A DNA stretch of 64,000 bases from a virus (IMGVR_UViG_3300008255_000107); one strand, 5' to 3'; shown: positions 5,167-25,894, counted from the first letter of the stretch. Made by a program: numbers and translations. The notes: generated by a model not told the origin, from the sequence alone.

Positions 5167-5765
5167 TTTGAATTCCTACGGGCAAAGAGCCCACCTCCTG
5201 CATTCTTCCAACGGGAGTTGGATCGCAGGGGCATGTCTTCTCTGCTAAGAGTGTTTATGGTGTCCGCCACTAGGCGTAACACCTCATCGGGGTCGCCATC
5301 TATCGCAGCATACTCCCGAATTTCTTCTAAAATTTGGCGGGCCCTGTCTTGGTCTATAACGACCAAAGGGTCAGGGTTGACGGGTTGGAAGTACCAATCC
5401 TTTTCCAAAGGTTTGTCGATCGCTGAATCCAGAATCTCCAACCACTGACGCTGTGAAGCTAACCCTTCATTGAATCCCGGTATGATCCTTCCACGGGCGG
5501 CAAGCATCCTCTTAATTTTAGAGGTCATGTACCCGTTGACAGTACCACCTTTTATAGTCTCCAGGATGTAAGGCTTCATGCCGAACTGGCGTATCATCAG
5601 AAGAGTGGTGTCCTCGTCTACACCGGAGAGCCTAGCCACATCGGGTAAAAGTAAAAAGTCTCTCTCAGACAGGTGGACGGCCAGCTTCAGAGGAGGAGCT
5701 TTTTGGCGATGAATTAACTTACGAGGTGGCATCCTATATGTATACCTTTCCTGATACATCCGCAA
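5163..5765 (-). CDS. hypothetical protein (200 aa). The true start may be an internal Met, because the ORF overlaps the upstream gene by about 30 nt.
   Basis: ORF, stop overlaps the next start as ATGA. Confidence 0.45.
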   Translation of the reverse strand: MRMYQERYTYRMPPRKLIHRQKAPPLKLAVHLSERDFLLLPDVARLSGVDEDTTLLMIRQFGMKPYILETIKGGTVNGYMTSKIKRMLAARGRIIPGFNEGLASQRQWLEILDSAIDKPLEKDWYFQPVNPDPLVVIDQDRARQILEEIREYAAIDGDPDEVLRLVADTINTLSREDMPLRSNSRWKNAGGGLFARRNSK

Positions 5766-7050: not shown

Positions 7051-7085
7051 AAAAAGCGCCCTGGAGTACCAGGGCGCCCTAAAAA
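7051..7085. terminator. bidirectional rho-independent terminator hairpin (gcgccctgg agta ccagggcgc) flanked by A/T runs
   Basis: Perfect 9-bp stem at 7056..7077 with A5 upstream and A5 downstream (T-runs on the minus strand). Lies between two convergent or tandem minus-strand genes. Confidence 0.7.
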
Positions 7086-8495
7086 TTATTGGAAGTTTCT
7101 ACGGTAATCAACCAACCAACTGGTACCGTCGTCGTAGGTTACACCTTCTACGCGGTCTACTTCGTTGGGGCCCTGTGAAGGACTGTAACCGGTGCTGCCG
7201 GGGAACTTCCACTCTGCGGGGTTTGCCCATGACCATCCACCAGACCCATCCTGAGACACTCTCATATCAAAAGTATTAACCACACCTGGAGTCACGCCTG
7301 TGATACCGATGGAGGTAACATTTTCAGTAAGGACAATGTCGAAGTAAGAGTCTTGGTACAAGTCCAAAATAAGTTCACCAGACGAGCTTGCAGGTGTGCC
7401 CATGGTCATAACAGGGTACGACCCCGTGACACCTTGAGCACCAGTATCGCCCTGAACACCTGTTTCTCCCATGGGCCCAACAGGTCCTGTGGACCCATCT
7501 ATACCAGTTTCACCCTGTGATCCAGTATCACCTTGTATACCAGTTTCTCCTTGAGATCCGGTTTCACCTTGGGTACCAGTATCACCTTGTGATCCCGTCT
7601 CACCTTGGGGGGCACCTGACGGTCCTGTGGCTCCAGGAGCACCAGTTTCACCTTGTGACCCTGTCTCTCCTTGAGGAGCTCCTGCAGGGCCAGTAGCCCC
7701 TGCTAGGCCTGTATCACCCTGTGGGCCTGTTTCGCCCACACCAGTTTCACCTTGAGAACCCATGGCACCAGTTTCACCAAGAGCTCCGGTAAGACCGCGA
7801 GCCCCTGTGTCACCTTTAAAACCTGTGGCACCCTTAGCACCAGTGGGTCCTGGGAAACCTAGAGGTCCCTGGATACCTTGTACACCTTGGATACCCTGAG
7901 TACCGGTTTCACCTTTGGAACCATCAGTACCCGCGGCACCGGTTTCACCTGGGGCCCCCGTCTCTCCCTGAGATCCGGTTTCACCTTGTGACCCTGTTTC
8001 ACCTTGGGGTCCAGGCCACCCTTGGTATCCTGGGATACCTTGGACACCCGTTTCTCCCTGAGATCCCGTTTCACCTTGAGATCCAGTTTCACCTTTGGGT
8101 CCTACGGGTCCTCCGCTGGGGCCAGTAGCACCAGCTAAACCCGTGTCACCTTGGGATCCTGTTTCACCTTGAGAACCAGTTTCACCCTGAGGGCCAGTTG
8201 CTCCAGCTAAACCAGTTTCACCCTGAGATCCAGTTTCACCCTGGGACCCAGTTTCCCCTTGCGATCCAGTAGCGCCTTGGGGTCCAGTGGACCCTTCAAT
8301 GCCTGTCTCGCCTAGAGGGCCTGTAGCTCCAGGACCCGTATGGCCTTGAGGACCGGTAGCACCAGGTTCACCAGTAGAGCCGGCTTCACCCGTAGCACCC
8401 CATCCTGTTTCTCCTCGCACACCATCAGGTCCGGTGGACCCTACACCGGTCTCTCCTTTCGAATTGGAGATCCATTCTGGTTTAATCTTAGCCAT
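7086..8495 (-). CDS. collagen-like triple-helix repeat protein: about 330 aa of G-X-Y (GETGSQ/GATGPQ) repeats followed by a roughly 110-aa C-terminal globular domain
   Basis: Uninterrupted Gly-X-Y repeats in the translation. N-terminus [16 protein letters not shown] upstream of 8495. Confidence 0.85.
7430..8460. repeat. tandem degenerate 18-nt (6-codon) repeats encoding the collagen-like G-X-Y array
   Basis: Repeated ccagtttcaccttgagatcc, ccagtttcaccctgggaccc and related units visible in the sequence. Confidence 0.8.
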
Positions 8496-8738
8496 ACTAG
8501 CACAGGTCCTTGTTAATTACGTACGATGGGTTGTCTGCTGATAGCGATGGGGTTATGTATGTGGGAGTTGTTCGCAGCACCCGCACGGGATACCTTAAAC
8601 TCTTCCACAGCTTCCGTGGGAGAAACCCCGGCGCGATTACCAGAAGTGGCCTGGGGTACAGGAGACCCCAGTCCTTTCAAAGCACGTGTAGTTCCATTGG
8701 CGATTCCGCCTGGTCTTGAACGGGACATAGAAAACTCC

Positions 8739-9047
8739 TTAAGCCCCGCCTTCCACAAGTCCATCTTCCGTGGCACCTGCTGGAGGTGGGGGTGTGGTAG
8801 GTGGCGCTTCCTGGATGGTAGCAGAGGTTTGTTGGGCAGGTTTTTGAATCCTGATAGGGTTGACGGTAGCAAGAAGCTTCTCAACACGTTCCACCACATG
8901 AGTGTGCACTATGGGCAAACTGTTCTGGAGGTCTTCCAGGATGGCCAGAACCACAAAACCCTTGATGGCGTAATCGCCACTGGGGTGGATTTCTTTGGCG
9001 CCAGGTGGCACTTCTAAAGGCTGTTTTTCTTTTTGTTCTTCGGACAC
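8739..9047 (-). CDS. hypothetical protein (102 aa), Pro/Thr-rich C-terminus
   Basis: SD AAGAGG 8 nt upstream of the ATG at 9047. Preferred over the overlapping ORF 8513..8899. Confidence 0.45.
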   Translation of the reverse strand: MSEEQKEKQPLEVPPGAKEIHPSGDYAIKGFVVLAILEDLQNSLPIVHTHVVERVEKLLATVNPIRIQKPAQQTSATIQEAPPTTPPPPAGATEDGLVEGGA

Positions 9048-9080
9048 GTGTTACCTCTTGTATTTGGATTTGTGATAAAC

Positions 9081-9115
9081 AGAGGGACATAGCCCTCTTC
9101 AGACTATGTCCCTCT
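9081..9115. terminator. hairpin terminator (agagggacatag ... ctatgtccctct) downstream of the 9139..11118 gene
   Basis: 12-bp perfect stem. On the minus strand it is followed by a T-rich stretch. Confidence 0.55.
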
Positions 9116-9138
9116 CGATTAGAAGATTATCCCAAAAA

Positions 9139-11118
9139 TCAGGTCACAACGGCTTCCAAGGTGAAGCTGCTGGAGTAGGTTGCGTTAGCCAACCACAGGT
9201 AATGGTAACCCGTAGATCTTGCTAGGAAAGGTCCTACTTCAGGGTTGTCTGTGATGGCTTGGGCATGGTACCCCTTTGAGTACTTATACCTGGCATCAGA
9301 GCTACTGGAAGAGAAACCAGTTCGGACGTTCTCGGTAGCCTGCCGGGGGCTCATAAGGAACAGCTGTTGCTGGGTCCCCCCTCCAGAGGTTATTTGGAGG
9401 GTGTACCTAGAACCAGCGGTCAGAAGCATGGCATATACTTTATAGCTGTTTGAAGCTACTGTGTCCACCAGTGGTGAAAGGTTCCATAGGGTGGCGCCCG
9501 CGCTGATGGCGGTGGTAGTAACCTGGAAGCTACCTGAAAGGTTCAAATTAGTACAACCGGAGAATGTGGCGTTATACACATTACAACCTCTAAAGGTGGA
9601 CCCCACTAAGTCTAGGCCGTCAAAGTTGGCGTGGCTCAAGTCACACCCTATAAAGTCACAGAAGGCAAATCTGGTTAGGGCGGAGAAGTCCACACCCTTC
9701 ATGTCTACACCCATAAATTTGGTATAAGGTAGAGTGTCCCCAGCCCCGGTTATAGCCGTGGCATTTTGGATACTCCCACCACTGTGGGTACCGCCACCAC
9801 CACCTATGGTGAGCTGGGAGTTACCGTAGTCTTCTCCGTTAGAACGGGAGGTGTTTACGTCATGGCACCAGTTCACCCAACATGCAGATGCAGTTACAGC
9901 CTCATTATAGCCATAACCGTTCCAGGAGCTATTAGCGGGTGAGAAAGCACCCCGAGCCTGCGTACCAGGTTCTACGGCTACTCGGGTCATGGAGCTAGTC
10001 CCTGCGGAAGTGACCATACTAGCCGGTAGCACACTGTCGCACAGGGTGGAAGGGTAAGCACTCACATTGTTGTGAGTGAATGTTATGTTACCTACGATGG
10101 TACTTTCCTCGGCAATAAACTGGGATACTCTGCAATCCACGAAGTAAAGGCTACCCAGAAAACCTATGAGGGAAACATCAAGAGCATCTATAGTGCATTT
10201 AGTGAAGGTAAGACTTCCTAAGTAAGACCCAATCATGGTCATGGTGCTGGGACCGTATAAGGAGCATTTTGTAAAAGAGGTACTACTCAAAGTGGTGCCT
10301 GAGCCGAACACCTGAGCGGATATGTGGGAATCGTAAAAGTTTGAGGAGGAGAGGTCACAGTTAAGGGCGCTGTTGGCGTTAAAGTCGCATCGGTAGAAAT
10401 TACAGCTTGTCAAGTTTCTGCTGGTCATACTTGTTAGGAAGGTACAACCAGTAAAGGTAGCTGAAGCAAAAACAGCATCGTTACCCACAAAATAGGGGTC
10501 CAGGAATGTAGTCCCCTCAAAACTAACCTGATAGTATACACCACTAGTAGCCTTCAGGGTTCCACCGTAAAAATATTGACCGGGAGCTATAGTCATGTCA
10601 ACAGCGTGAACATTCGAACCGTTCCAGGTACCGGACCAAGTACCCGTACCTGTCATGGTAGCACTCCACATACCAGCATCGCTCATGTCAAACGATACAG
10701 CCGTGAAGTTCCCAAAAGCGTTACTACCAAAAGTGGTGGCTACGCAGGACCAACCGGTAACTGTTGTCGGAGAGGAGAATGTGAAGGTCGAACCATTCAT
10801 GACGGCCTGGTCGAGGACTATGTTGTCGTACCCCGTTAAGTCGGCCCAGGTGCACCCTGTCACCGTAGCACCCGTGAAGTCGGCGCCCGTTAGGTTAGCA
10901 CCCGTGAAGTCGACCCCACTAAGATAGGCGAAAGAGAAAATAGCCCCACTCAGGTTGGTACCCACAAAGCTAGCACCACTGAGGTTAGACTCGGAACTAG
11001 GGGCACCCGTAGTCATCATGCCCATAAACACGCCGTTGGATAGATCCAGACCGGCCATGCCCGAGGCGGCACCACTGTAAATGATGCTGCCATCGTTCTT
11101 ATTTTTAACGACTGCCAT
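9139..11118 (-). CDS. beta-helix / pentapeptide-like repeat fibre protein (659 aa)
   Basis: Multiple A(N/D)(L/F)xx-type repeats (ANLTGADFTGATVTGC, SGASFVGTNLSGAIFSFAYLSGVDFTGANL) typical of right-handed beta-helix or pentapeptide repeats. Gly/Ser/Thr-rich. Confidence 0.6.
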   Translation of the reverse strand: MAVVKNKNDGSIIYSGAASGMAGLDLSNGVFMGMMTTGAPSSESNLSGASFVGTNLSGAIFSFAYLSGVDFTGANLTGADFTGATVTGCTWADLTGYDNIVLDQAVMNGSTFTFSSPTTVTGWSCVATTFGSNAFGNFTAVSFDMSDAGMWSATMTGTGTWSGTWNGSNVHAVDMTIAPGQYFYGGTLKATSGVYYQVSFEGTTFLDPYFVGNDAVFASATFTGCTFLTSMTSRNLTSCNFYRCDFNANSALNCDLSSSNFYDSHISAQVFGSGTTLSSTSFTKCSLYGPSTMTMIGSYLGSLTFTKCTIDALDVSLIGFLGSLYFVDCRVSQFIAEESTIVGNITFTHNNVSAYPSTLCDSVLPASMVTSAGTSSMTRVAVEPGTQARGAFSPANSSWNGYGYNEAVTASACWVNWCHDVNTSRSNGEDYGNSQLTIGGGGGTHSGGSIQNATAITGAGDTLPYTKFMGVDMKGVDFSALTRFAFCDFIGCDLSHANFDGLDLVGSTFRGCNVYNATFSGCTNLNLSGSFQVTTTAISAGATLWNLSPLVDTVASNSYKVYAMLLTAGSRYTLQITSGGGTQQQLFLMSPRQATENVRTGFSSSSSDARYKYSKGYHAQAITDNPEVGPFLARSTGYHYLWLANATYSSSFTLEAVVT

Positions 11119-11136
11119 AAACCTAATCTCCTATGA

Positions 11137-14100
11137 TCAGAATGAAACCTTGGATACGGTCACGTGTGCCATCCATCTGGTATCCACCCCTGCTGTACTT
11201 GGTACTGAAATGTCAAACAAAAGCCCAGTAGCACCGATACCCACGTCGACTCCCTGCAACAAGTTATCGTTTGAGCAACCCGTGTAGGAAGCCAGCACAC
11301 TGCTGGTATCAATGTAACTTTCATCCGTGGTCAGGATGCCTTCAAAATGCTGCACAGCACCAATAGCACCCGTGTAACCCTTGGCCACCACTTGGGCTCT
11401 TACCGAGTAAGAGGTATTTGGGAGCAGGTTGTACTGGGCATCAGCGTGGATACCTGTGGTACCCTCAAGCAGCAACGACTGCCCGGTGATACCGGTGTCG
11501 TCTGTGAAACCACGAAGGATGAAGTCTGAGGTTTGGGCATCACCACGGTTCTCGAACTTTCCGTTAGCGTGGGCTATTTCGGAAATGTGGGTGGCCTTGG
11601 CACCCCTACTACCCAGAACTGTGGCGTAGTCAGCCCCTAAGGTATCCGAGTCGTTGGAGTTATAGATACCCTGATGTGTACCCGTGCCACCTACGTCACA
11701 ATCACTAACATTGTGCAAGGATAGATTGGTACCAGACCCCATGGTAGACCTGTTGAAGGCCGTCATGGCTGACGTGATGGTACCACCTGAGACGTAACCG
11801 GACATACCCGCTTCCACTACGGAGTTGGTGACATTCCTTACGTTCGAATAGGACACTGCTCGGATTGCAGCCATGTTGCCCGTGAAAAGGGTAGTGTGCT
11901 CGGAGGATGCCACCGAGGATTTCTCTGACCCACCAGCTCCGGTTATACCGCGAGAAGAATCAATACTAACTGAGTTGGGTCCTTCCAGAAGGTTACAATC
12001 CCGAGAACTACTTATCCTACTGTACTCTCCACTGTGTATTCTGCTGTTCCCAAAGGAAGCCATAGAACTGAAGTTAGAGGATTCCATCGCACCCGAGTAA
12101 CCCGCTTCCATGGAAGCGAATGACGTACTGACCATAAGACCGTTCTTAACAGAACGTAATGAGTCCATGTTAGTACTCTTGGCCGTTATATCCTGGGACG
12201 CGGATATGCTGGTATTGTGGGCGCCCCACATACCGGTGATACCTTGAGAGGAGTCCACGTGCATGTAAGAGTTGGAGTCAGAAAAGTTAACGATCTGCGA
12301 GGACGATACATCGATATGGTTAGAACTGCTAGTTACTCGTACATCCCTGGAACTACCCACCTCAACATAGGCAGCACCACTGCTTAGCTGTACCTGGTGA
12401 GCTGACCTGACTGACGAGTATTGTACTGAGGATATGATGCTGGATTCTAGGACTCCGGACAGAGTGCTGCTGGTAGACCCTGAAATGGCGCCTGAGTAAC
12501 CGGCTTCAATCATGCATTGCTCAGATCCAGTGATATAGGACTGCCTGGAACTAAGCACTGTGCTGTTATGGGAATCAATGTTTTGGCAATCTTCGGAAGA
12601 TGCTAGGAAAAGCATTTCAGATCCATTGGCCACATTCCTGCGCCCGCCAACCATACCGCTGGCACGAACGGCATTAGTCATGCTGTTCTGCTCACCACCT
12701 ATGATAACGGACTCTTCACAGAAGTAAGCCATAAGGTGTTCACGGCCTCCTGCTATGAGGGAGTTGTGGGAGTACCCTGTAATAACACCGCGGTCTACTG
12801 CAAGTATGGAGGAACCCTCGGTGTTACCAGAAACGATAGAGTTCATAGACGATTTTATGGAGCTCCGGGAGCTCATTTCGGATATGGAACTCTCACTGCT
12901 GTTGTGGATGGAGGCATGGTAGGACCCCCCAGAAATGGACACAGAGTAACTGTTGAAGATGCCACTGTAGTCGGTAGCAGGACGAATGAAAGATCCAGCG
13001 GAACCCATAATTACGGCGCTGTTAGATGATTGGACCGTAGAGGCGAAGCAGGCAGCCAGGACAGACTTAGTGGAGTTATCCAGTGTGCTGCTTTCGCTGG
13101 CGGCTATCAAGGAGTCCTTAGCGGAATCCATATTATTGTCTGTGGACAGGGCCAACGCCACGGAGCGATAACTACCCATTACCCGTAAGCCGCTGTCCGA
13201 GCTACTCTGGGTGCAAGCTAGTACAGCGATATCGGTGCTCTTGTCCAGAGTAACGTACGAAGAGGCTGCGGTAAGGATACGGTGGGATGCCGTCAATTTA
13301 ACTTCTGAGCTAGCCGCAATCGAAGCAAAACTTGAAGAAGCCATGTACGTTGATGCCGAAGCACCTATGGTGGCGGTCGCACTATAATACACTTTATTAC
13401 CGGAGGAGGAGCCCGCCACAGATACAGAGGTGCTGTCTATGATGCTGGCCCCGGCTGATCCCGCAATATGGGCGAGACTAGCTGCGGTGATATTCGAATC
13501 ACGGGTACCGTCCATGGACGACACAGCCGCAGACTTTATATAACCACCTGAGGAGGCTTTAATGGAGGTTAGGTTAATGACGTTAGCATAGGTGTTGTAA
13601 ACAGCGGATACGTCGGACCATACTGCATCGTTTACGTAACCAGACACACCTGACCGCACTCCTGAGAATCGGCTATTACGGATGTGACCCCCATCTGAGT
13701 TTCTGAAATCCGCAAAGGTGTTCGCCACCATGGCGCTTCCTACTCTGGAAGTAGCTGCACGGAAAAAGGCGTTAGCCTGTAGGGTAGCACCGTCAGAACT
13801 GTCCACGCCCGAGTAGGTGTTGGACGATTGCATCTGTACATTTCGACTCTGGCCGGCATGGCTATAGGAACTGTTGTAGAAGTATGTATTTTCTGTACCC
13901 TGAGCACTGGAGTGGTGAGAGTACTCCCTAAGGTAAGTGCTTTGTACACCCTGAAGGGTAGAGTAGTTGGTGTTGTACACCTGCCCATTGTAGGAGGCTT
14001 GCACCACGGACTGATGGCTGTAGTCCGTAATCACACAGTCATGGGAAGCTGCCATAAAGGCTTCGTTGGAATCCTGAATGGACGAGTCAGCGGTAGCCAC

Positions 14101-16527: not shown

Positions 16528-16749
16528 AATCTAGACCTAACCGGTTAGTCCCAAGACCAAAAGGGCTTGAAATATCAAATTTTCAACAAAGCCACGCTTT
16601 CTCCCTGCCCTGTACTGTATTAGAAGTTTATTCGAACCATAACCTTCTAATACGGGGCACCTATGAATTGAATTGTCTTTTTCTTATGCCATGAGGTACC
16701 TAACGGGGTTTTAGTCCTTGCTGGGGTATCCCAAAATAGAGGATGTAGT

Positions 16750-18399
16750 ATGGCCACCGGAGTAACTTACCAAGACCTTGACGTGCTTACCCTTAATAGC
16801 AGTGAGAGTTATGTAAACTGTGTTTTCCTTCGAATTAAGAAGATCCAGGTAGCTTCCGCGGGCTCCAATGCCATGGTCACCTGTACATTTACAGACTGCC
16901 CTGACGTACTTTGCGATTTTAGTCTGATGCAAACTTGCGTGGTTACACGCTGTACCTTCACAGTCAACCAAAGCGGCTCTACATTGTACTGGTACTCCAC
17001 GACCGCCACGGATTCTTATTTCTACAAGACTTCGTCCAGGACCGTGTCACTAAGCGCAGGGACTTACACTGGGGGCGTCATAGCGGGAAGGTTCAATGTA
17101 GAGTACAATGGTTCCCCTGTGGTCCTTACGGGTGTTACTGTTAAAGGGTCCCCTGCTTACGACGGGGTACTTTTGGGTAACAACTTGAATATGACGGACT
17201 GTGTTTTCGAAAACATCGTTACTGTGTCCGTAAGTAACCTGAGCCTTGCAAACTGCTCTGGTCCAAAGCCGTCCAAGGTGACTTTGCAGAATTGCTCAGG
17301 AGGAGGTGTCTCCGGGGGTACGTACGACATCCTGATCATGGACGGTGCTAACTCATCTTTTTCTTTCCAGCCCTCTAAAGTTTCGGTGGTAAACTACCCT
17401 AGTTATGGCACATGGAGCTCTGTCCCTCTTACCACCGCCGTGGATACTATACAATACCCCGTACCAATGAACATGACAAGCTGCTCTGTTTATGGTGCTA
17501 AGGGGATAGATGTGCGTAAGCACAGCGTAGCGTGGACTGACGTAACATGGCAGGCTCCCGCCCACAACTTGAAGTTGCCCAGGTTGTCCCGTATCATTCT
17601 AGGCCATCACGCATCCCCCACTACTAACCCTTTTCGAAACTGTGACCTGACGGACTCTCCTCGATTAGAATTCACAGCGGGTGGGTTCTACGTAAGAGAT
17701 TTTGACATGTCCGGCTCCAACCTCTACAACACTCCCTCTGGGGCCATGTTTATGGGGAACAATGTTAAGGGCAGGGGGTGCAACATGAGCAACCTTTTCC
17801 GAGCGGATATCTCCAAGGGTACCACCATTAGGGGTTGGGATTTCCGGGATGCTGTATGGAACGACGCTTATCTAAACGGCCTTAAATTTGTGGATTGCGA
17901 CTTCCGCGGAACAGTGTTTAACGGCGGATACATGCAAAACTGCTCTTTTGCTAATACCTCTTTCAAAGGGGCCAATTTCAATTTTATAGACACCACAGGT
18001 ACGGATTTCTCCGGCGCCGACATGACTTCTGGTTATACCAGGTTCGATGACCAACTATCGGGATGGTCCCCATGGCCATACCAGACCAGCTCCAATGCCT
18101 TTAGCGTTGGATCGGGGCAATCCGCTGCGTTCAGCGTAATTGTTAATTACATAGGACGTAGCATATCCACAGGTCTACTTTCTGGTATCGTCTGGGTCCT
18201 TTCCGAAAAAACGGCAGACAGCCACTATATACAGAGTCTGGTGTCCGTGAATGAGGATTATCTGGATGCGAATGCCATTCAGAAAATCACTGTAAGTGCG
18301 GGTGCATCCATAACTTTCGCTGCGACCCCGGTTGCGGGAAGATATTACCTGGTGGTCAAAAACACAGGAAGCACTACCAGGACTGTGCAGATGCAGTAG
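16750..18399 (+). CDS. pentapeptide-repeat-containing fibre-like protein (549 aa)
   Basis: C-terminal half contains consecutive pentapeptide repeats (FRGTVFNGGYMQNCSFANTSFKGANFNFIDTTGTDFSGADMT). Followed by a terminator. Confidence 0.6.
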   Translation: MATGVTYQDLDVLTLNSSESYVNCVFLRIKKIQVASAGSNAMVTCTFTDCPDVLCDFSLMQTCVVTRCTFTVNQSGSTLYWYSTTATDSYFYKTSSRTVSLSAGTYTGGVIAGRFNVEYNGSPVVLTGVTVKGSPAYDGVLLGNNLNMTDCVFENIVTVSVSNLSLANCSGPKPSKVTLQNCSGGGVSGGTYDILIMDGANSSFSFQPSKVSVVNYPSYGTWSSVPLTTAVDTIQYPVPMNMTSCSVYGAKGIDVRKHSVAWTDVTWQAPAHNLKLPRLSRIILGHHASPTTNPFRNCDLTDSPRLEFTAGGFYVRDFDMSGSNLYNTPSGAMFMGNNVKGRGCNMSNLFRADISKGTTIRGWDFRDAVWNDAYLNGLKFVDCDFRGTVFNGGYMQNCSFANTSFKGANFNFIDTTGTDFSGADMTSGYTRFDDQLSGWSPWPYQTSSNAFSVGSGQSAAFSVIVNYIGRSISTGLLSGIVWVLSEKTADSHYIQSLVSVNEDYLDANAIQKITVSAGASITFAATPVAGRYYLVVKNTGSTTRTVQMQ

Positions 18400-18420
18400 T
18401 CCCCTAATAAATGCTATAGA

Positions 18421-18449
18421 AAAGGCTGCCCCAAAAGCAGCCCTTTTTC
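18421..18449. terminator. rho-independent terminator (ggctgc cccaaaa gcagcc + T5), bidirectional between convergent genes
   Basis: 6-bp GC stem plus ctttttc immediately after the stop of the 16750..18399 gene. An A-run on the other side serves the minus-strand gene. Confidence 0.65.
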
Positions 18450-18452
18450 ATT

Positions 18453-19208
18453 TCAGAAGTTAAACCCTACTTCTTCACCTGGTCCCAAATCACCCCCGCA
18501 TGATCTCTTTTTCCAGGAAGCGTACCCCGGGTTGGTCTCACGAGGGTGAAACACCTTGGCATCTTCCAAAACGGGAACATTCAAATGTTCTTTGAAGCAG
18601 TCCCGCATGAAAAAAGCGTCGTTTCCCCCGTAAGTGCTGTGGGGGACAGTCTTGTACCCACCTATCTTTTCCCACACAGGAACGGGTATCAGAATCACAC
18701 CCCCGGCGACACCCTGGTTCTCCCGGTAATAACGCAGGGTGTAATCCCCCTTATGACAAACTTCACTGTTGTGCTTCCAGTGGCAGCAGTTACCAACCTG
18801 TTCTGCCGCTACCCCACCTAGCCCACCAACTTTTCGAAAGGCACCAATCATTTTCGTGAGGAAATCGGGATCGGGGTATGTGATGTCGGAGTCGGCGCTT
18901 AACAGAAAATCGTAGCCATTATCCTTGCACTCCTGGTAGATCCTGTTTACGGCCGGACCCTTACCAATATTTTTATCAAAATCTTTTACCGCCACGGATC
19001 GGAAGCATCCCGCTGACACCAGCTCAGGTAGATAGTACCCCAAGGCTTTGGCTATGGTGTCGTCTACGCCGTTTAAACCAAAAACCAAATCTATTGATAC
19101 ACCAGGATCCACCTTAAGCGTGGCCATACTCTCCAGAGCCTTGACCACCTTTTCAGACTGGTAGTAAACAGGTACACACATCAGTATAGAGATTTTATCG
19201 AGGGACAT
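18453..19208 (-). CDS. glycosyltransferase family 2-like protein
   Basis: N-terminal ISILMCVPVYYQSEKVV... Rossmann-like GT-A start, and a DxD-like SADSDITYPD motif. Confidence 0.5.
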   Translation of the reverse strand: MSLDKISILMCVPVYYQSEKVVKALESMATLKVDPGVSIDLVFGLNGVDDTIAKALGYYLPELVSAGCFRSVAVKDFDKNIGKGPAVNRIYQECKDNGYDFLLSADSDITYPDPDFLTKMIGAFRKVGGLGGVAAEQVGNCCHWKHNSEVCHKGDYTLRYYRENQGVAGGVILIPVPVWEKIGGYKTVPHSTYGGNDAFFMRDCFKEHLNVPVLEDAKVFHPRETNPGYASWKKRSCGGDLGPGEEVGFNF

Positions 19209-21252
19209 ATTGCTCTGAATTCCTTGAGAAGTTCGGATTGAAAAAGGGGTCGTTCTGTATCTCGTGCATCCACGTGTCGTGCATGTATTTTATAGAGGAT
19301 GCGAAAGATGTATCCTTGTGATTGTCCTTACCACGTGAAATCGACTCGTGATGGTAAAGCATTACCCAAGGGTTGTATATGATACGGTGACCGGCTTTGC
19401 GGATCTTTAGGCAAAGGTCTACATCGTTGAAAGCCTGGGGAAGATCCTCATTGAAACCCCCCACTTTGTCGAAGACACTTTTTCTAACAAGCATGCAAGC
19501 ACCGGTGACAGCCGACACCTCATGGACGGTCATAGCCCTGCAGAAATATCCTCCGCTTCCATAAGGAGTACCCCTTAGCGTGTGGCCGGCTACTCCTCCT
19601 ACCCCCATATCAACCCCACCGTGCTGCAGGGTACCGTTAGGGTACAGAAGTCTGGCGCCAACGGCACCTATGTCTGGATAAACCTCCATCCACGAAACCA
19701 TCTCCCTAAGCCAGTGGTGGTCCATTATTTCAGTGTCGTTGTTAAGGAACAGGACGTAGTCAGTGTTGAACATTCCTGCTCCCGCATTGGATTGCTTGGA
19801 GAAATTGAAGGGGTATTCACCTAAAGAGATGGCGTAATCCAGGGGCTTAAGGGTGGTGTCGTATTCCGGATTCAAACAACCCTCGTAAAAAGATTTAGCC
19901 TTTTCGGCAGGACTACCGTTATCCACTATGCTTACACAAGCGCTATCGTACTGGGTCTTGTATAGGGACTCCAAGCAATTGGCTGTAACATCAAATTGGT
20001 CTTTAGCTGGAATCACGATATTCACCGTAGGTTCGCTGGGTAGGTAAAGAACGGGTCGGTACACACTTAGGTTAGTGGTGTTGAAAACATCCCCATCACC
20101 GGTACTAAGCACCAAGAGCTCAGTAAGAGCCTCACGGGCCACTCTAAGGGCGTACGGCTTGGCAGATAGGCTCGAGGCTACCGACGTGGGTAAAGTTCTC
20201 CAGTGGTACAGAATACGGGGTATGTGCACCACCTTAGCAATCGGAAGCAAGGTGTCCTGATCCTCACCCCATAGGTATTTGATCAGAAAGCGGTAATCCT
20301 GGGAACCGTTGTACTTGGTCTCATAACCAAAGGCATGGCTTCGTACGCGGTCCATTCTGAAAGCTGTTAGGTGATTTATGTAGTTTTGGCACATAAACAA
20401 GGCAGGGGACCAATCAGGTTTGAAGAACGGGGCACTTCTCACACCGTCCTCACCCACCTTGTCCTCGTCAGTGTATATGAGGTCCACACCGGGGTTACTG
20501 TCCACGCACAACGCTATCTCCATAAGGGCTGTCCTTTCAAGGAGGTCATCGTGGTCTAGAACCACCATCCATTCACCCTTTACTTTCTCAAGGGCTTTAT
20601 TTTGAGCTTCGGATATCCCCTCGTTGTTTTTTGATAGAACGACTTGGATACCCTTTTCTTTACGGGCTAGGGAGCTAAGGTACTTGGACAACTCTTCATC
20701 TTGAGATCCGTCATCTACGATCACCCATTCCCAATTACTGTAGGACTGGGATAGCACTGACTGCACCGTTTCCTGCAAAACTGCCATAGGTGTCTTGTAG
20801 GTGGCCGTGATGATACTTATCAAGGGCATGCCCATAGGACCCATGGCCACTTCTTTTTCTTTGAGTAAACGATGGGAGGGAACATTGTTCCCGTACCATA
20901 ACGCTAAGCTAGTGGTGGGGTCTGTGTACTGGGGGACCAAAGTTATTTCTACAGCTGCCCCTACGAAGTGGTCCCCTAGGTCGAACATAAATGGTTCGTT
21001 GTCCTGGATGACAGACATATCAAACTTGAAAGCTTTTTCTTCCTCTCCAATCTTAAAGGAAGAGTACAGAACGCCTTGGGGTACACGGCAGTATGTAGCA
21101 AATACCAATTCCACATACCTGACTGGTTTTCCATCGGGTACCGCTAGCTGCACCTTGTGCTGGGCACCCAAAAGAACAGGAAGTTTTGCTACCTGTTCTT
21201 CGGACACCACTTCCGTGGATGGAACGCTACTTTCCTGAGGATCCGAAGCCAT
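19195..21252 (-). CDS. two-domain glycosyltransferase (tandem GT2/GT-A domains). The start is probably Met58 (MASDPQ) of the 742-aa ORF, which avoids overlap with the dUTPase gene.
   Basis: ISIITATYKTP ... VVDDGSQDE and VNIVIPAKDQ ... VDNGS GT2 signatures. DxD motifs HDD and TDED. Confidence 0.55.
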   Translation of the reverse strand: MASDPQESSVPSTEVVSEEQVAKLPVLLGAQHKVQLAVPDGKPVRYVELVFATYCRVPQGVLYSSFKIGEEEKAFKFDMSVIQDNEPFMFDLGDHFVGAAVEITLVPQYTDPTTSLALWYGNNVPSHRLLKEKEVAMGPMGMPLISIITATYKTPMAVLQETVQSVLSQSYSNWEWVIVDDGSQDEELSKYLSSLARKEKGIQVVLSKNNEGISEAQNKALEKVKGEWMVVLDHDDLLERTALMEIALCVDSNPGVDLIYTDEDKVGEDGVRSAPFFKPDWSPALFMCQNYINHLTAFRMDRVRSHAFGYETKYNGSQDYRFLIKYLWGEDQDTLLPIAKVVHIPRILYHWRTLPTSVASSLSAKPYALRVAREALTELLVLSTGDGDVFNTTNLSVYRPVLYLPSEPTVNIVIPAKDQFDVTANCLESLYKTQYDSACVSIVDNGSPAEKAKSFYEGCLNPEYDTTLKPLDYAISLGEYPFNFSKQSNAGAGMFNTDYVLFLNNDTEIMDHHWLREMVSWMEVYPDIGAVGARLLYPNGTLQHGGVDMGVGGVAGHTLRGTPYGSGGYFCRAMTVHEVSAVTGACMLVRKSVFDKVGGFNEDLPQAFNDVDLCLKIRKAGHRIIYNPWVMLYHHESISRGKDNHKDTSFASSIKYMHDTWMHEIQNDPFFNPNFSRNSEQYVPR

Positions 21253-21835
21253 CTTCGCCTCTGGAAGTTTCCCCAAGTTCCTCGGGACTCTTGACCCGTT
21301 CCAACTCGGGCATAGGAACCTCTGCAGGCACCAATTGGGCGATCTTGTCCCCCAAGGTGATCCTTTGGGCATTCCCGCTGGTGTTGGTGATGCACACACA
21401 GATTTCACCCCTGTAGGGGTCATCTACGGTTCCAGGGGTATTGGTGACGACCAGGCCCTGCTTCGTAGCGTTCCCACTACGAGGACGCACCTGTAGCTCA
21501 TATACCTTACCGGGATCACCGGTAACATGAGCTTTGATCCCAGTACCCATCATGACTCTGTCCCCAGGATTCACGACGACTGCATGCGGCTTTAAGTTGT
21601 CACGGATTTCCTTGGGGGTCTGCCCTGGGGTGCCATCTCCGTCCAAAGGTATGGAGATACCTTCAATGATACCACGCTCGTCGGATTCCAGCATCTCTTC
21701 TTTAAAGCTGCCTCGGATCCAGGCTTTTTTGAACGAATGCACGAACACGTCGAATCCCGAATCAGTAGGGTTAGCTTTGACTGGGGCTAGTGCCTTGTCG
21801 TCCAGTAGGTAGTAGCGGAACTTAAGCTTGCTCAT
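21227..21835 (-). CDS. dut: dUTP diphosphatase (trimeric dUTPase family)
   Basis: Motifs DSGFDVF (motif 1), RPRSGNATKQGL (motif 3) and GTVDDPYRGEI (motif 4). Strong SD AAGGAGG before MSKLKF at 21835. Confidence 0.75.
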   Translation of the reverse strand: MSKLKFRYYLLDDKALAPVKANPTDSGFDVFVHSFKKAWIRGSFKEEMLESDERGIIEGISIPLDGDGTPGQTPKEIRDNLKPHAVVVNPGDRVMMGTGIKAHVTGDPGKVYELQVRPRSGNATKQGLVVTNTPGTVDDPYRGEICVCITNTSGNAQRITLGDKIAQLVPAEVPMPELERVKSPEELGETSRGEDGFGSSGK

Positions 21836-22574
21836 CGTTGGAGACCTCCTTATCCTTCCAGGTACGCAACTCATGGTAGCGGGAAGAGGGGCAGGGGAAT
21901 TCCAGATCAATCTTCATGCGGTCAGAGTCATTCCCCAGAAAACTATTTTGGATAAGGGTGATGGCCTTTTTGGCATTTTCTTCCAATGACCCCTCACCGG
22001 TGATTATTTCCACGGGACCCCGTACGAATTGCTGAGTGCTGAGGTAGGCATCACGGATGCCATTCAAGCGATCCATGGAAACTTCGGGCTCACGTTGGTG
22101 GCAAAGTTCCACGGGGGTGTCCACAAAAATGGTAAGGTCAGGCATGATAAAGATGTCTTCCTGTGTGTAGAGCTTGGTGGTGAAGTCGAAGCATGAAGGG
22201 GAGAACATCTTGGCGTAGGCCATGCCTGTCCATAGGTAACGATCCAGAATGGTAGAGCGAAGGGAATAGGTCCTTTGCTGCCTAAGGCGGCTAGCCAGGA
22301 AAAGAACTTCACGTTCGTTTTGGTCCATTTTAACTTTGGGGTCGTTGAGGCGATCGGCTTCTTCGGTTGAGAAGGTAGGTTCTTTCTGCCATTGCCAAGA
22401 GTTTCGGGAGGTACCAATGTATTTGGACAAAAATTCGTCGGTGTTTTCTCTGGCATGCAACATGCTCACGCCAATGGCGTCGTCGCGAAGGATACGGTGA
22501 ACTTCCTGGGAGATGGAGGTCTTGCCGCTGTTGTCAATTCCTTCGAATACCACTAATAAGGGTTTCACGTTCAT
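21822..22574 (-). CDS. tmk: thymidylate kinase-like dNMP kinase
   Basis: P-loop LLVVFEGIDNSGKTSIS matches the dTMP kinase EGxDGxGKT pattern. The start is taken at MNVKP (SD AAGGAGAGC upstream). Confidence 0.55.
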   Translation of the reverse strand: MNVKPLLVVFEGIDNSGKTSISQEVHRILRDDAIGVSMLHARENTDEFLSKYIGTSRNSWQWQKEPTFSTEEADRLNDPKVKMDQNEREVLFLASRLRQQRTYSLRSTILDRYLWTGMAYAKMFSPSCFDFTTKLYTQEDIFIMPDLTIFVDTPVELCHQREPEVSMDRLNGIRDAYLSTQQFVRGPVEIITGEGSLEENAKKAITLIQNSFLGNDSDRMKIDLEFPCPSSRYHELRTWKDKEVSNDEQA

Positions 22575-23461
22575 TTGCTCTCCTTGTCTGAGCTTACTAT
22601 GGATTTGATATCTGGTTGGTACTCTTTCAGCCCTTCCGAAAAATCTTCCCACCTACCCTTTACTTCAGGGACATAGTCCGCTGTCTGCTTGCTGAGCTTG
22701 GGGTTTTTGGTCTTATAGTACAGGGCACTCCACGGACCACCATTATACTCTGCTAAAACCAGTTCCCAGTCCCCGTACAGGGAGTAGGAAATGTCCAGGT
22801 ACTTAGCTGCCATTTCCGTGCTGATCTTGTCGTCGTCCAGCATGTTTTGTGAAAAGGATATACCCATAGCGTCTGCTAGAAGTTTACCGGTAAGGGGCAT
22901 GATATGGTTTAGACCCGTGGCCCCCACTTCACTCTTGCGATGGATACCCCATCGGGATTCCTGGTATTGCAGAGAGGTGAGTAGCAGGGCATCCACGTTG
23001 GGGTAAATCTCTGCCACCTCCACATTACGCCTTGCTAGGTTAAAAGCTTTATCGATCGAATAATTCTTGGCGGGTTGTTTAAGATCCCGAGTGATCACCG
23101 TGATATTCTTCTGCCAGTATTCGTAGACCATGTCCCTAATGAACAAGATTATCCTTTGGCGTTCTTCCCCGTAGGTGATCTGTGAAACCAAAAAGTGCTT
23201 TTGCTGGGTCTGCTGAAGTTCTATGTTCTCTAACTTCACAGCGATGGCTTGGCTCCGTTGTTCACTGGCTTGCTGCGTGGATTTCCCCATGTAGTAGAAA
23301 ACCACGGACACCAGGGCTATGAATATAAATAGGGTTGCCCCTATTATCGTCCAAATCTCCTTCAACTCCATCCGCATGATGAACTGTGTGTTCTTGGGGC
23401 TTTCCTTAATAGGGGGTGCGTCGATGCTTTTATCTTCGATGTTTTCACCTTCTATGTGCAT
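22571..23461 (-). CDS. membrane-anchored lytic transglycosylase (SLT domain)
   Basis: N-terminal TM helix IIGATLFIFIALVSVVFYY. SLT catalytic region ESRWGIHRKSEVGATGLNHIMP ... AEYNGGP. Confidence 0.7.
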   Translation of the reverse strand: MHIEGENIEDKSIDAPPIKESPKNTQFIMRMELKEIWTIIGATLFIFIALVSVVFYYMGKSTQQASEQRSQAIAVKLENIELQQTQQKHFLVSQITYGEERQRIILFIRDMVYEYWQKNITVITRDLKQPAKNYSIDKAFNLARRNVEVAEIYPNVDALLLTSLQYQESRWGIHRKSEVGATGLNHIMPLTGKLLADAMGISFSQNMLDDDKISTEMAAKYLDISYSLYGDWELVLAEYNGGPWSALYYKTKNPKLSKQTADYVPEVKGRWEDFSEGLKEYQPDIKSIVSSDKESK

Positions 23462-23462
23462 A

Positions 23463-24200
23463 TCACATCCTTAGTTTGGGGTCCACAGGGACGAAAGTGT
23501 CCATATCCGTGATTTCATAGGTGTACGGTTCTCCGTAACCTGCTTTTCGGGGATCGTCCTTGATGTCCTCTTCGGAGTATCCCCAATTTTTTGTTTGGCC
23601 CTTGTGCAAGCAATACATGTCCCTACAAAAGGCGACCTTGTACGACTTCTCTCGAACAAGCTGAGACACAAGTCCATCGTCTCCGAAGGCATCCATACTT
23701 TGGGGATAGCCCTCAACTGGGTACGCTTCACGACGAACCATCTTAAAGGTATTGCCTACAGCCTTACAGTATACCAAGTCTTCGGAGGCTTGGGTAGGCA
23801 TCTGCAGCCATTGAGGAGGGAGCTGAGGAGTCAGAAAAGCCACATCCTGATGCTTATTCATGAGCTCCACCATACGGGCTAGCCAGTCCTTACCTTCCAA
23901 ACGAGGTGGGATGACGTCATTATCCGTTACCACATAATAGGGGTTGGATGAATCCACCATGGCGTGGAATACGTACTTACCCCATAGGCACCTGGTGTTG
24001 GTTTTGTGGGAGATGACAGCTTCCACTAATCCTTCATCCATCAAATTGGATAGCAAAGAACGAGTCACCGGAGTGCATTCGTTGTCCAGCACTGTGATCT
24101 TAAAGGTGCCTGGGGCGGTGCGATCGTGGATGCTGCGAATAACTTCTTCCGTCATGTGGGGGCGGCGCCAAGAGGTAATGAAAATGTCGATGGGCTTCAT
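23463..24200 (-). CDS. glycosyltransferase (GT-A fold, GT2-like)
   Basis: MKPIDIFITSWRRPHMTEEVIRSI ... VLDNECTP, typical of an N-terminal GT-A nucleotide-binding region. A DxD-like motif is present. Confidence 0.45.
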   Translation of the reverse strand: MKPIDIFITSWRRPHMTEEVIRSIHDRTAPGTFKITVLDNECTPVTRSLLSNLMDEGLVEAVISHKTNTRCLWGKYVFHAMVDSSNPYYVVTDNDVIPPRLEGKDWLARMVELMNKHQDVAFLTPQLPPQWLQMPTQASEDLVYCKAVGNTFKMVRREAYPVEGYPQSMDAFGDDGLVSQLVREKSYKVAFCRDMYCLHKGQTKNWGYSEEDIKDDPRKAGYGEPYTYEITDMDTFVPVDPKLRM

Positions 24201-24739
24201 AGGTAGATCCTTGTCAACTCTCGCAGAGTTTTACGATGGGAATCAAGTAGGTTTTTGGAACGAACGTCCGTTTTCTTGGAAAGCATATCTATGAGGTTTC
24301 TCAGTATGGTAGTAGTCCCAGCTATGGTCTTCCTGTTAACAGCAGTGTGGCTTTCCGTTAGGCGCCATGCTCCAGGAATTGACAGGGTGCCGTCCGAGTG
24401 CACTATGATGCGAGGGAAGATATCCTCAGTATTTGGTTTAGCCTCAGGAGGCTTAGAAGTCACAATGGGCCTCCGTGGCCTAGGTGTGGTTTCTTGAATG
24501 GGTGCCGGCCTCGGTGCAGGTTTCTTTTCCTTAGGGGACGGTCCCCTCAGTGGGGGCATGGGTACAGGGTCAAAAGCTTTCTGAAGCGAGCTTCTCTCGT
24601 CTGCTTTAGGATTGTACCGCTTACGGCGAGGTGGTTCTATTAGGGCATTGGCACTCACACGAACCCCTAGCTTCCTCAAATCCTCTTTGATCTTAAGCTT
24701 CCACTCTTCCAGTTCTTTTTCGTGCTCTTCGGGCGTCAT
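24197..24739 (-). CDS. hypothetical Pro-rich basic protein
   Basis: ORF. Pro/Lys/Arg-rich low-complexity centre. Confidence 0.4.
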   Translation of the reverse strand: MTPEEHEKELEEWKLKIKEDLRKLGVRVSANALIEPPRRKRYNPKADERSSLQKAFDPVPMPPLRGPSPKEKKPAPRPAPIQETTPRPRRPIVTSKPPEAKPNTEDIFPRIIVHSDGTLSIPGAWRLTESHTAVNRKTIAGTTTILRNLIDMLSKKTDVRSKNLLDSHRKTLRELTRIYL

Positions 24740-24763
24740 GTGTCTCCTGTATAATTCGGGGGC

Positions 24764-25894
24764 TCAAAACCCTAAAACGGATAGGGCCGCCTGGATCTTG
24801 GATAGTATACGACTCCTGATCGATTTTTTAAACGAACCTTGCAGATAATCGTACACAAAGTCACCTACTCGGATGCAGCCATTACTGGATACTGACACTG
24901 TTCCTGACAGGGGACCCTTTCTTTCAAAAGATCTTCCCTTTATTATAATTGTTCTGGGGTTGACATCAATATCCCCTAGTGAGATGGAGGATACGTCAGC
25001 AACAGGTTTATCCTCCAAATGCTGGAGAATGTGCCGGTACCGCTCCATGATGAGATGCTTACCGTGGACATGGGCAAATAGGTCATCACCTCTTCCGTGC
25101 ATGAAATGTATCACGCGGCTTTGGTCCTGGATGTGCACATCAACACCGGCGTAAAGAGCGTCCACACCGAAGGCTATATCCTCGTAACCCCACTGTTCCC
25201 TGAAGGCTACCTCGTCGAAGTGCATACCCTCCAGGCCGTAGACCTTTTTCATGAAAAGTTGGACTAGGTCCAGGGCGGACCGCGTAACTGCGAAATTACA
25301 GGACCAGCTAACCATACCCGTCAGCATGTAGTCAATCTTATCGTTAAAGTCTGACAATGCTTCGAACCCATTTACAACACCGGCCACTTCCCGCAGATCC
25401 CTGTGGTCCAGGGGCAGCCCGTCTCGTAAATTGTCCATGTTAGCTGTCAAAAGGTCAGATGGCTTGTTCTTGTACCTCTCGTAAAAAACATTTTCCCCAT
25501 TCAACCATTTGTCGAAATCGTAGGGACGCTCCACGTGGACCCGGGTTCCGAACAACAAGGTGGGTACCGAGGGGTCGTCAAAGTAGGTGGACAGACGATC
25601 AAAATAAAGGTCGTCCTCAGCTATGCTGTCCCCATCCATGAAAACCACAATATCGGCGCCTATGGCCAACGCTTCTTGTATGCCACGGTTACGGGTGGAT
25701 GAGCGCCCTCTCTCATCACCGCGAACAACACGCAGCCAACCATCTTCGGAGGATCTCAGGGTCTGCACATCACTGTGGTCATCTATCACAACCACGTGGT
25801 CCGGCTTAGTGGTCATTTTCCTAAGGATACCCAAATGAAATTGGACGATATCTTCTTGGTTATGGCACGGTAGAACTAATACTGTTTTTCTCAT
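24764..25894 (-). CDS. glycosyltransferase family 2
   Basis: VLVLPCHNQEDIV ... VVVIDDHSD ... DxD. Classic GT2 N-terminal signature. Confidence 0.6.
   Translation of the reverse strand: MRKTVLVLPCHNQEDIVQFHLGILRKMTTKPDHVVVIDDHSDVQTLRSSEDGWLRVVRGDERGRSSTRNRGIQEALAIGADIVVFMDGDSIAEDDLYFDRLSTYFDDPSVPTLLFGTRVHVERPYDFDKWLNGENVFYERYKNKPSDLLTANMDNLRDGLPLDHRDLREVAGVVNGFEALSDFNDKIDYMLTGMVSWSCNFAVTRSALDLVQLFMKKVYGLEGMHFDEVAFREQWGYEDIAFGVDALYAGVDVHIQDQSRVIHFMHGRGDDLFAHVHGKHLIMERYRHILQHLEDKPVADVSSISLGDIDVNPRTIIIKGRSFERKGPLSGTVSVSSNGCIRVGDFVYDYLQGSFKKSIRSRILSKIQAALSVLGF

Follow-up and report, generated by a model that had tools for sequence, protein, structure and literature searches.

What kind of system is encoded where large repetitive proteins lie next to a set of glycosyltransferases (GTs) in a viral genome? 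A 64,000-nucleotide stretch of DNA from the virus IMGVR_UViG_3300008255_000107, analysed here as a whole and called the window, raises this question: between 7086 and 18399 it carries genes for four such proteins, and a block of GT genes adjoins them. An earlier annotation made without database searches (the sequence-only reading) took both for one glycosylated-fibre module resembling the collagen-like fibrils of giant viruses. Our results favour a different partition. The region from 5.7 to 18.4 kb is probably a virion fibre module by which an uncultivated jumbo phage of ~209 kb recognises its host, and the GTs next to it would form a separable cassette. The repeat proteins are considered first, then the GTs and the readings that compete with ours, and finally the genome in which both are found.

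A fibre-type module with a shared N-terminal tag

The four open reading frames (ORFs) lie where they had been placed and match the public gene calls on the containing contig, which read 549, 1796, 659, 102, 71 and 469 amino acids (aa) followed by a glycoside hydrolase of family GH5 (Table 1). Their grouping into one module also stands, the arrangement being conserved, virus-encoded and of fibre type. The 469-aa protein is collagen-like, as had been claimed: it reaches 158 bits against PF01391, where the cutoff is 27.2, and contains 111 G-X-Y triplets in seven runs, the longest of 41. Thr occupies 45 of the 111 Y positions (41%), Gln 29 and Lys four. It begins with MAKIKPEWI and ends in a 110-aa non-collagen domain; its 599-aa orthologue in the related locus L001 starts with MSKVKPEWI. 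PHROG tail-fibre families match the collagen region, and collagen segments are common in such families.

The longest of the four (1796 aa, hereafter the giant protein) has the Ser-, Thr- and Gly-rich composition previously ascribed to it (S 19.2%, A 10.1%, G 9.9%, T 7.5%) and no match in Pfam, PHROG or NCBIfam. It consists of a conserved N-terminal region of ~200 aa opening with MAKVKPEWI, a repeat shaft of ~1,400 aa that is probably beta-structured, and a 170-aa C-terminal beta-sandwich, the 'GDAQ' tip, with the motif YGQxAHASGxFxxxGDAQTS...LFLDG...RWVAxVRTxEV. An exhaustive HMMER search with residues 598-1796 against 1.8 billion representative proteins gave 26 matches, 25 of them limited to the last ~170 aa, and the Ser-rich shaft has almost no relatives in that collection. 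In other proteins the tip domain caps shafts of 17-residue GGxxN beta-roll repeats, weakly YadA-head-like; the tip of the giant protein is a divergent member of this family, 24-39% identical to the others.

The AF2 model of the tip, built on a 25-sequence alignment, is a beta-sandwich (pLDDT 72.8, pTM 0.73) whose best structural matches are solved phage tailspikes and tail fibres; a PDB sequence profile search gave only a marginal match, to the Sf6/HS1 tail-needle knob (E=0.05). In BFVD, Foldseek finds the tip as the C-terminal domain of many proteins from uncultured Caudovirales that bear YadA-like, collagen-repeat or tail-fibre annotations (E down to 2e-9), and also on collagen-like and YadA-like proteins of giant-virus bins; the domain occurs on bacterial surface proteins bearing signal peptides as well. 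The likeness to giant viruses survives in part, through the proteins of giant-virus bins. The stronger claim, that the module resembles giant-virus fibrils more than phage tail fibres, does not hold, given the tailspike and fibre matches of the tip, the frequency of collagen in PHROG tail-fibre families, the rarity of Lys at the Y position and the lack of any oxygenase in the scanned ORFs.

Among known systems, those closest to the giant protein include phage tailspikes and fibres such as those of the Acinetobacter phage Fri1 (gp49, 6c72), AM24 (5w5p), APK09 (8oq0) and Klebsiella Kp9 (gp42, 7xy1), in which a beta-helical shaft joins an N-terminal anchor to a C-terminal beta-sandwich. It differs from them in showing no sequence similarity and no detected pectate-lyase-type catalytic helix, and in a shaft that is unusually long, 19% Ser, periodic at 8/16-17 residues and without a Pfam or PHROG family. 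Likewise, its C-terminal domain is homologous to that of the other GDAQ-tip proteins (from uncultured Caudovirales, bacterial surfaces and giant-virus bins), whereas its shaft is Ser-rich and theirs are YadA-head-like beta-rolls or collagen-like.

Hydrophobic residues along the shaft give autocorrelation peaks at 8, 16-17 and 24 residues, the longest stretch free of them is 10 aa, and S+T+P reach at most 60% of any 20-aa window; a partial relative of the giant protein (L003) has a clear octad repeat, SxIxGSxx. The periodicity, together with the shortness of the hydrophobic-free stretches, argues for folded beta-structure and against a disordered mucin-like region, and as a pattern of residues it would be the signature of a beta-solenoid or an intertwined triple beta-helix. 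The long S/T(/P) tracts without hydrophobic core residues that mark mucin-like or serine-rich-repeat O-glycoproteins are not found in the giant protein, so that it can no longer be called an obvious O-glycosylation substrate.

The remaining two are pentapeptide-repeat proteins. That at 9139-11118 (pp659), earlier described as right-handed beta-helix-like, is a repeat protein indeed, and more specifically one of this kind (PF00805, 84.7 bits, cutoff 20.2), with canonical repeats at both ends and in the middle and PDB matches to designed Rfr proteins, MfpA, Qnr and McbG-like proteins over residues 20-110, 230-332 and 466-529; it is absent from the sister lineage. The other (pp549), already recognised as a pentapeptide-repeat protein, scores lower, still above the cutoff, has PDB Rfr matches over residues 286-443 and is conserved throughout the related lineages. 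A ConA-like lectin domain is appended at the C-terminus of its orthologues (Laminin_G_3; L015, E=9e-14; L001, E=0.003), and between L015 and the window the C-terminal region of pp549 is 42% identical where the flanking GTs are 66-81% identical. Modular, fast-evolving C-termini of this sort are typical of receptor-binding proteins.

Comparison with related loci supports the fibre reading further. The only full-length relative of the giant protein, P0004 (1258 aa), is 36-39% identical over the N-terminal ~200 aa and carries the same tip domain, whilst shaft and tip are at ~24-25% identity, which is the conserved N-terminus and variable distal part expected of a tail fibre. In L001, L010 and L011 the gene order is a pentapeptide-repeat protein (826 aa, on the divergent strand), the giant homologue, an 89-aa ORF, the collagen-like protein and, further on, GH5; the window has the same order at 26-47% identity, with pp659 and a 71-aa ORF as extras. 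The pentapeptide gene is divergent from the giant gene in every lineage where the latter is in view. Moreover, the sequence M[AS]K[VI][KQ]PEWI is found at the N-termini of the giant and collagen-like proteins only, in both lineages, and nowhere else in the window or the fetched loci. Since the two fibres are architecturally unrelated, this shared nonapeptide seems best explained by a common docking or recognition site.

Several genes and signals accompany the four proteins. The 102-aa ORF and the 71-aa ORF next to it are candidate fibre-assembly factors; two further ORFs of 128 and 163 aa at 8513-9017 were rejected as genes in favour of these two, which have ribosome-binding sites and are publicly called. 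The GH5 enzyme has a 47% identical homologue downstream of the collagen gene in the sister lineage and is a candidate glycan depolymerase travelling with the module. Between the divergent giant and pp549 genes, in their promoter region, lies a 15-nt inverted repeat with the arms GTATTAGAAGTTTAT / ATAACCTTCTAATAC, unique in the window and conserved in L001 (~9020-9070), where the arms carry compensatory changes (GTATTAAAAGGTTAT / ATAACCTTTTAATAC); it could be an operator or a regulatory (5′-untranslated region) hairpin. It was also considered as a repeated promoter motif and rejected as such, other matches in the window being at chance level.

Some points weigh against the fibre reading and should be set beside the above. 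Neither the N-terminal region of the giant protein nor the C-terminal domain of the collagen-like one has detectable relatives of known function, and PDB sequence searches with them gave nothing useful. Structure prediction, which had been recommended for the repeat proteins and was run for the giant one, yielded the tip described above, but its last 460 aa as an AF2 monomer are all-beta at low confidence (pLDDT 51); the monomer would be uninformative here because the protein is probably an obligate trimer. Related lineages in public data number only two or three, so that the synteny argument rests on a small sample, and we know of no pentapeptide-repeat protein with a demonstrated structural role in virions. 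Finally, the window and the 10 kb beyond it (~74 kb in total) showed no gene for a capsid, portal, tail or baseplate protein, and it is for this reason that we infer, and do not observe, the membership of the repeat proteins in the virion and their attachment to it.

Searches for more relatives added little. Against phages, tblastn gave no match for the giant protein, GT376 or GT764; a search of IMG/VR for related loci, queried with pp659, the giant protein and the N-terminal alignment, was likewise empty, and a metagenome scan returned the L001 lineage again and nothing further. When the full giant sequence and the N-terminal alignment were used in word-indexed searches, nothing came back, not even the giant protein itself or P0004, probably because of candidate-list saturation or index gaps and not because of absence.

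Table 1. Features of the fibre module and of the glycosyltransferase genes in the window
Coordinates	Strand	Feature	Basis
5734..6849	-	GH5 glycoside hydrolase ('cellulase'), 371 aa as publicly called	PF00150 E=4e-45
7053..7080	-	Terminator-like hairpin, 12-bp GC-rich stem and T-run, end of the 102-aa, 71-aa and collagen unit	
7086..8495	-	Collagen-like fibre protein, 469 aa	PF01391 E=4e-47
8513..8728	-	71-aa ORF	AAGGAG ribosome-binding site; public gene call
8739..9047	-	102-aa ORF, between giant and collagen genes in both lineages	39% identity to the 89-aa ORF of L001
9081..9115	-	Perfect 12-bp inverted repeat followed by T's, terminator-like, after the giant-pp659 unit	
9139..11118	-	pp659, pentapeptide-repeat (Rfr) protein, 659 aa, with ~130-aa non-repeat C-terminal domain	PF00805 E=2.8e-24
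11137..16527	-	Giant protein, Ser-rich fibre protein, 1796 aa	Composition, HMMER, AF2, Foldseek
16617..16653	.	15-nt inverted repeat, divergent promoter region between giant and pp549 genes	
16750..18399	+	pp549, pentapeptide-repeat protein, 549 aa, divergent from giant gene	PF00805 24.4 bits, cutoff 20.2
18424..18442	.	GC hairpin with A-run and T-run flanks, bidirectional terminator-like, between convergent pp549 and GT251	
18453..19208	-	GT251, GT-A glycosyltransferase, 251 aa, soluble	Sub-threshold PF13506; homologue P0038
19195..21252	-	GT742, glycosyltransferase with two GT2 domains, 685 aa from an internal ATG, ORF to 21423	GT2 E=7e-36
21227..23461	-	dUTPase, thymidylate kinase and SLT lytic transglycosylase, start codons uncertain	Domain matches
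23463..24200	-	GT245, probable GT-A glycosyltransferase, 245 aa	PF00535 E=9e-4, 19.6 bits, cutoff 23.3; DND motif
24764..25894	-	GT376, GT2 glycosyltransferase, 376 aa, soluble	E=3e-9
52190..54484	-	GT764, 764 aa, GT31-like (Galactosyl_T) and GT2 domains, 26 kb from the module	Pfam, both domains above cutoff

The glycosyltransferase block and the competing readings

At least six GTs had been counted, directly following the repeat genes. The count is true for domains only, because five genes carry up to seven of them. Three of these five GT-A-type proteins are firm and hold five domains, namely GT742 with two, GT376, and the distant GT764, whose description as a multi-domain GT is borne out; the other two fall below Pfam thresholds, GT251 being assigned only through its 56% identical homologue P0038, which carries PF00535, and GT245 being sub-threshold by itself. 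An hhalign comparison of GT245 with the GT251 family was not significant, PDB sequence searches with GT764 and GT245 gave nothing useful, and no phage or PDB relatives of GT764 were found. As for position, the block does adjoin the repeat genes, but its run is interrupted by the genes for dUTPase, thymidylate (dTMP) kinase and an SLT lytic transglycosylase (22571-23461, minus strand), the last of which is membrane-anchored by an N-terminal transmembrane (TM) helix at residues 33-62. None of the GTs, GT251 included, has a TM segment or a signal peptide.

The supposed link between GTs and fibres is not a conserved one. The sister lineage L011 is collinear with the window from ThyA through a gene for a 165-aa protein to the fibre module, and the slot taken up by the 9.8-kb GT block in the window holds a metallophosphatase gene plus eight small ORFs there, none of them with a recorded GT domain; L015, a closer relative, retains the arrangement GT742-GT251-pp549. 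An AT-rich phage-like contig (L013, ENA ERZ27301260 k141_1329814) carries a 56% identical GT251 homologue, clustered with genes for a thymidylate kinase, a GT2 and a GT92-like protein; fibre genes are not in view. This setting indicates that this type of GT moves between unrelated phage backgrounds and recurs beside dTMP-kinase genes. Judged from these three gene orders, the block would be separable from the fibre module. The terminator-like hairpins point the same way: they flank the units in such a manner that the GT genes appear to be co-transcribed with the nucleotide-metabolism genes, in a transcription unit separate from that of the fibres.

What would such a cassette act upon? Tentatively, its enzymes may make or remodel a host polysaccharide or lipid-linked glycan (cell-wall, teichoic-acid-like, exopolysaccharide (EPS) or receptor-masking), in superinfection exclusion or the control of progeny release, and have nothing to do with the fibres. 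The nearest solved relatives of GT742 are two-domain co-polymerases (the chondroitin synthase K4CP and heparosan synthase) and the wall-teichoic-acid GTs TarP and TarS; its NCBIfam matches are all to EPS, teichuronic-acid, colanic-acid and PNAG-type families, none reaching the curated cutoff; the sequences most like it in the phage collection (39% identity) are on short unannotated contigs labelled Listeria and Enterococcus; and the GTs match PHROG 'moron/host takeover' families. The membrane-anchored transglycosylase and the GH5 enzyme are also nearby. On the other hand, every GT is soluble, and family scans of the window found no Wzx/Wzy, ABC exporter, initiating phosphoglycosyl transferase or GtrA/GtrC-type partner, nor any membrane GT, flippase, polymerase or exporter. 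Of a Gtr-type serotype-conversion cassette, which comprises a GtrA flippase, a GtrB bactoprenol GT and a membrane GtrC, there are weak GtrB-like PHROG matches only (E ~1e-6 to 1e-5). The phage, besides, looks lytic and jumbo, and not temperate.

Cytoplasmic O-glycosylation of the fibres by the soluble GTs, preceding or accompanying assembly and giving glycan-coated fibres, is an unlikely reading, even if the sequence-only one leaned towards it. The targets would be Thr in the G-X-T triplets of the collagen-like protein and Ser ladders on the giant one, with giant-virus fibrils, BclA and glycosylated mycobacteriophage virions as analogues. It draws on the physical adjacency of the genes, on the persistence of GT742-GT251 beside the pp549 orthologue in L015, on the solubility of the enzymes and the lack of export, flippase or Gtr-type partners in the window scans, on the high share of Thr at the collagen Y position, and on the presence among the PDB matches of GT742 of GalT1, a GT of serine-rich-adhesin glycosylation. 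Against this, the fibre module of the sister lineage has no GT block at that position, the GTs of the window apparently belong to a separate unit with dUTPase, thymidylate kinase and transglycosylase behind a bidirectional terminator-like hairpin, the giant protein is not mucin-like, no GT has more than family-level similarity to a known protein O-GT, and the GT251 homologue of L013 sits in a cluster without fibre genes in view.

The analogues themselves fit to different degrees. BclA is a Thr-glycosylated collagen-like protein with GPT repeats, and the collagen-like fibre resembles it, as it does collagen-like phage fibres, in ending a long G-X-Y region with a globular C-terminal domain and in the frequency of Thr at Y; it differs in that the window yielded no genes for the biosynthesis of rhamnose or other sugars. 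Mimivirus (L230 and R699-type proteins) likewise encodes collagen-like proteins and several GTs. Its route, however, is through hydroxylysine (Lys at Y, a lysyl hydroxylase and a hydroxylysine-specific GT), whereas here the scanned ORFs of the window hold no 2OG-Fe(II) oxygenase or lysyl hydroxylase domain, Lys at Y is scarce, and the genome is prokaryote-virus-like. A documented precedent for virion glycosylation by phage GTs exists in mycobacteriophages (Freeman et al. 2023, as cited in PMC12619734). The enzymes of Che8, Corndog and Myrna are also of GT-A/GT2 type and without obvious polysaccharide-export partners, but their known targets are C-terminal extensions of capsid and tail-tube subunits and not fibres, and genes of that kind are outside the present window. 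In its fullest form this reading would have the virion coated with chemically distinct fibres (collagen helix, Ser-ladder beta-helix, pentapeptide rods), O-glycosylated in the cytoplasm by the phage's own soluble GT-A enzymes, as a phage counterpart of giant-virus fibrils and BclA-type glycosylated collagen, with MAK[VI]KPEWI as a shared docking or recognition signal; we regard it as decidedly doubtful.

A different objection concerns the pentapeptide-repeat proteins, which could act inside the cell, as Qnr/MfpA-type DNA mimics or anti-defence factors, and merely be sited among fibre genes without being part of the virion. Rfr is the DNA-mimic fold of Qnr, MfpA and McbG, there is a weak match to the Hailong effector HalA, and phage pentapeptide proteins are mostly uncharacterised. 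With Qnr, MfpA, McbG and Np275/276 both proteins share tandem pentapeptide repeats above Pfam cutoffs. They are, however, three to four times longer (549-826 aa across the lineages, against ~200 aa in DNA mimics), carry additional C-terminal domains of beta-sandwich or lectin type that diverge fast, and stand in fibre-gene synteny, divergent from the giant gene wherever it is in view. The objection is on these grounds rather improbable, and we retain the pentapeptide proteins in the fibre module.

It is quite improbable, too, that the GTs glycosylate phage DNA as a base hypermodification against restriction, although this would explain why they are interleaved with nucleotide-metabolism genes. 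Besides the dUTPase and dTMP kinase within the block, ThyA, DHFR and RNase H are 7-14 kb away, and the GT251 homologue of L013 is again beside a thymidylate kinase. A two-domain, polymerase-like GT such as GT742 is atypical among DNA GTs. TarP-resembling GT-A phage enzymes that glycosylate 5-hydroxymethylcytosine (5hmC), and that associate with ThyS or 5mYOX genes, provide a precedent (bioRxiv 10.1101/2023.12.21.572611). The reading is weakened because the ThyA of the window has the canonical dUMP-specific Asn (PFNIASY) with DHFR adjacent, and so looks like an ordinary thymidylate synthase and not a hydroxymethylase, and because domain scans and precomputed Pfam matches found no TET/5mYOX hydroxylase, C5-methyltransferase or hydroxymethylase in the window.

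Least credible of all is a non-viral origin of the segment, either as a bacterial island for an adhesin or S-layer or as an assembly chimera, for although the GDAQ domain does occur on signal-peptide-bearing bacterial surface proteins and ~74 kb pass without a hallmark virion gene, the fibre proteins have no signal peptides, the arrangement was recovered independently in ENA, JGI and Logan assemblies, and dense co-oriented phage-type genes, tRNAs and homing endonucleases surround it.

The source genome and other genes of the window

Read in reverse complement, the window corresponds to the first ~64 kb of a public contig of 208,623 bp (ENA ERZ27293386 k141_252269), and JGI and Logan assemblies also hold parts of it; the source samples are ERZ27293386, JGI 3300025018 and SRR6053076. 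Had the GT genes matched host-chromosome enzymes without viral context, the sequence-only reading would have fallen; instead, the viral context is robust, with a contig of 209 kb, seven tRNAs and phage-type genes. The gene layout is dense, mostly co-oriented and of phage type, and includes nucleotide and replication genes (an intein-bearing ribonucleotide reductase, RNR; an NAD-dependent ligase; ThyA; DHFR; RNase H), a GroEL-type chaperonin, a TROVE/Ro60-like protein, an Apyc1-like metallo-beta-lactamase and HNH genes, with a sigma-70 family gene directly outside, beyond the window start. A megablast of 7000-26000 against 50,697 phage records returned no match, and the source is most likely an uncultivated jumbo phage of ~209 kb without a near relative among those records. 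It is probably not of the 'moraphage' lineage (PMC12619734), which lacks most of the replication and nucleotide machinery present here.

The 165-aa protein (28248-28745, minus strand), kept in the sister lineage, starts with a sequence resembling a signal peptide, continues with a coiled-coil-like middle part and has a TM segment at its C-terminal end; together with the SLT transglycosylase it may be a lysis component, hinting at a diderm host.

Other genes are worth recording in their own right. The RNR large subunit (54537-59147, minus strand, 1515-1536 aa) has LAGLIDADG and Hom_end homing-endonuclease (intein-type) insertions and a C-terminal TSCPD domain. The TROVE/Ro60-like protein, with a vWA domain, is on the minority strand (48942-50270, plus) between ORF-poor flanks (47650-48941 and 50566-51185). 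Cellular Ro60 has Y RNAs as partners; none was found near this gene by Rfam at gathering thresholds, which over the window detects tRNAs and nothing else (six, against seven by ARAGORN). The tRNAs form a cluster at 62840-63628 (minus strand; Gln-CTG, Gln-TTG, Met, Ile-TAT and two Phe-GAA), abutted by an HNH endonuclease gene, with a lone tRNA-Arg(CCT) at 43754-43827 (minus strand). A metallo-beta-lactamase-fold protein at 44259-45113 (minus strand) matches the anti-Pycsar nuclease Apyc1 (PF23023, 86.6 bits, cutoff 50) and is a probable anti-defence gene. Next to it in coordinate order come two adjacent papain-family (Peptidase_C1) cysteine protease genes (45209-46105 and 46099-46881, minus strand), a pair that is to our knowledge unusual in a phage. 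The 73-aa gene at ~3706-3927 (minus strand; 14569-14790 of locus L004) has a precomputed eIF-1a/IF1-type match (PF01176), which suggests a phage-encoded protein like translation initiation factor 1. A YpsA-like gene is at 997-1500. The GroEL-type chaperonin (34203-35828, minus strand) is 41-43% identical to the best phage-collection chaperonins, including those of Bacteroides and Vibrio phages, and no co-chaperonin was noticed near it.

Proposed anatomy and significance of the module

Put together, the host-recognition reading predicts the following anatomy. The giant protein would be a long, probably trimeric, beta-structured fibre, held by its conserved N-terminal anchor and extended by a Ser-rich repeat shaft of perhaps ~40-85 nm to a beta-sandwich tip like those on YadA-like and collagen-like phage fibres. 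The collagen-like protein would be a second fibre, of about ~95 nm, which, carrying the same N-terminal nonapeptide, probably docks at the same virion site or adaptor. The two pentapeptide-repeat proteins would be short rigid rods with C-terminal domains of binding type, to which orthologues add the lectin domain; the 102-aa and 71-aa proteins may assist assembly, and GH5 may depolymerise glycans. Beside them, the 9.8-kb block at 18453-28195 would be a separable accessory cassette, its four soluble GT-A enzymes apparently co-transcribed with dUTPase, dTMP kinase and transglycosylase, and it could act on the fibres, on a host envelope glycan or on DNA.

For now the region is best called a recognisable, if unusual, phage host-range module; the new elements in it are the Ser-rich shaft family, the N-terminal tag common to two fibres and the occurrence of pentapeptide-repeat proteins in fibre synteny. 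The presence of the GT cassette in one relative and its absence from another offer a natural comparison for finding out what phage GT-A enzymes act on, whether virion proteins, host glycans or DNA. Should the fibre reading be right, three rod architectures would be combined in one receptor-binding module, and a single 9-residue tag addressing two fibres would be a compact example of a shared docking site.

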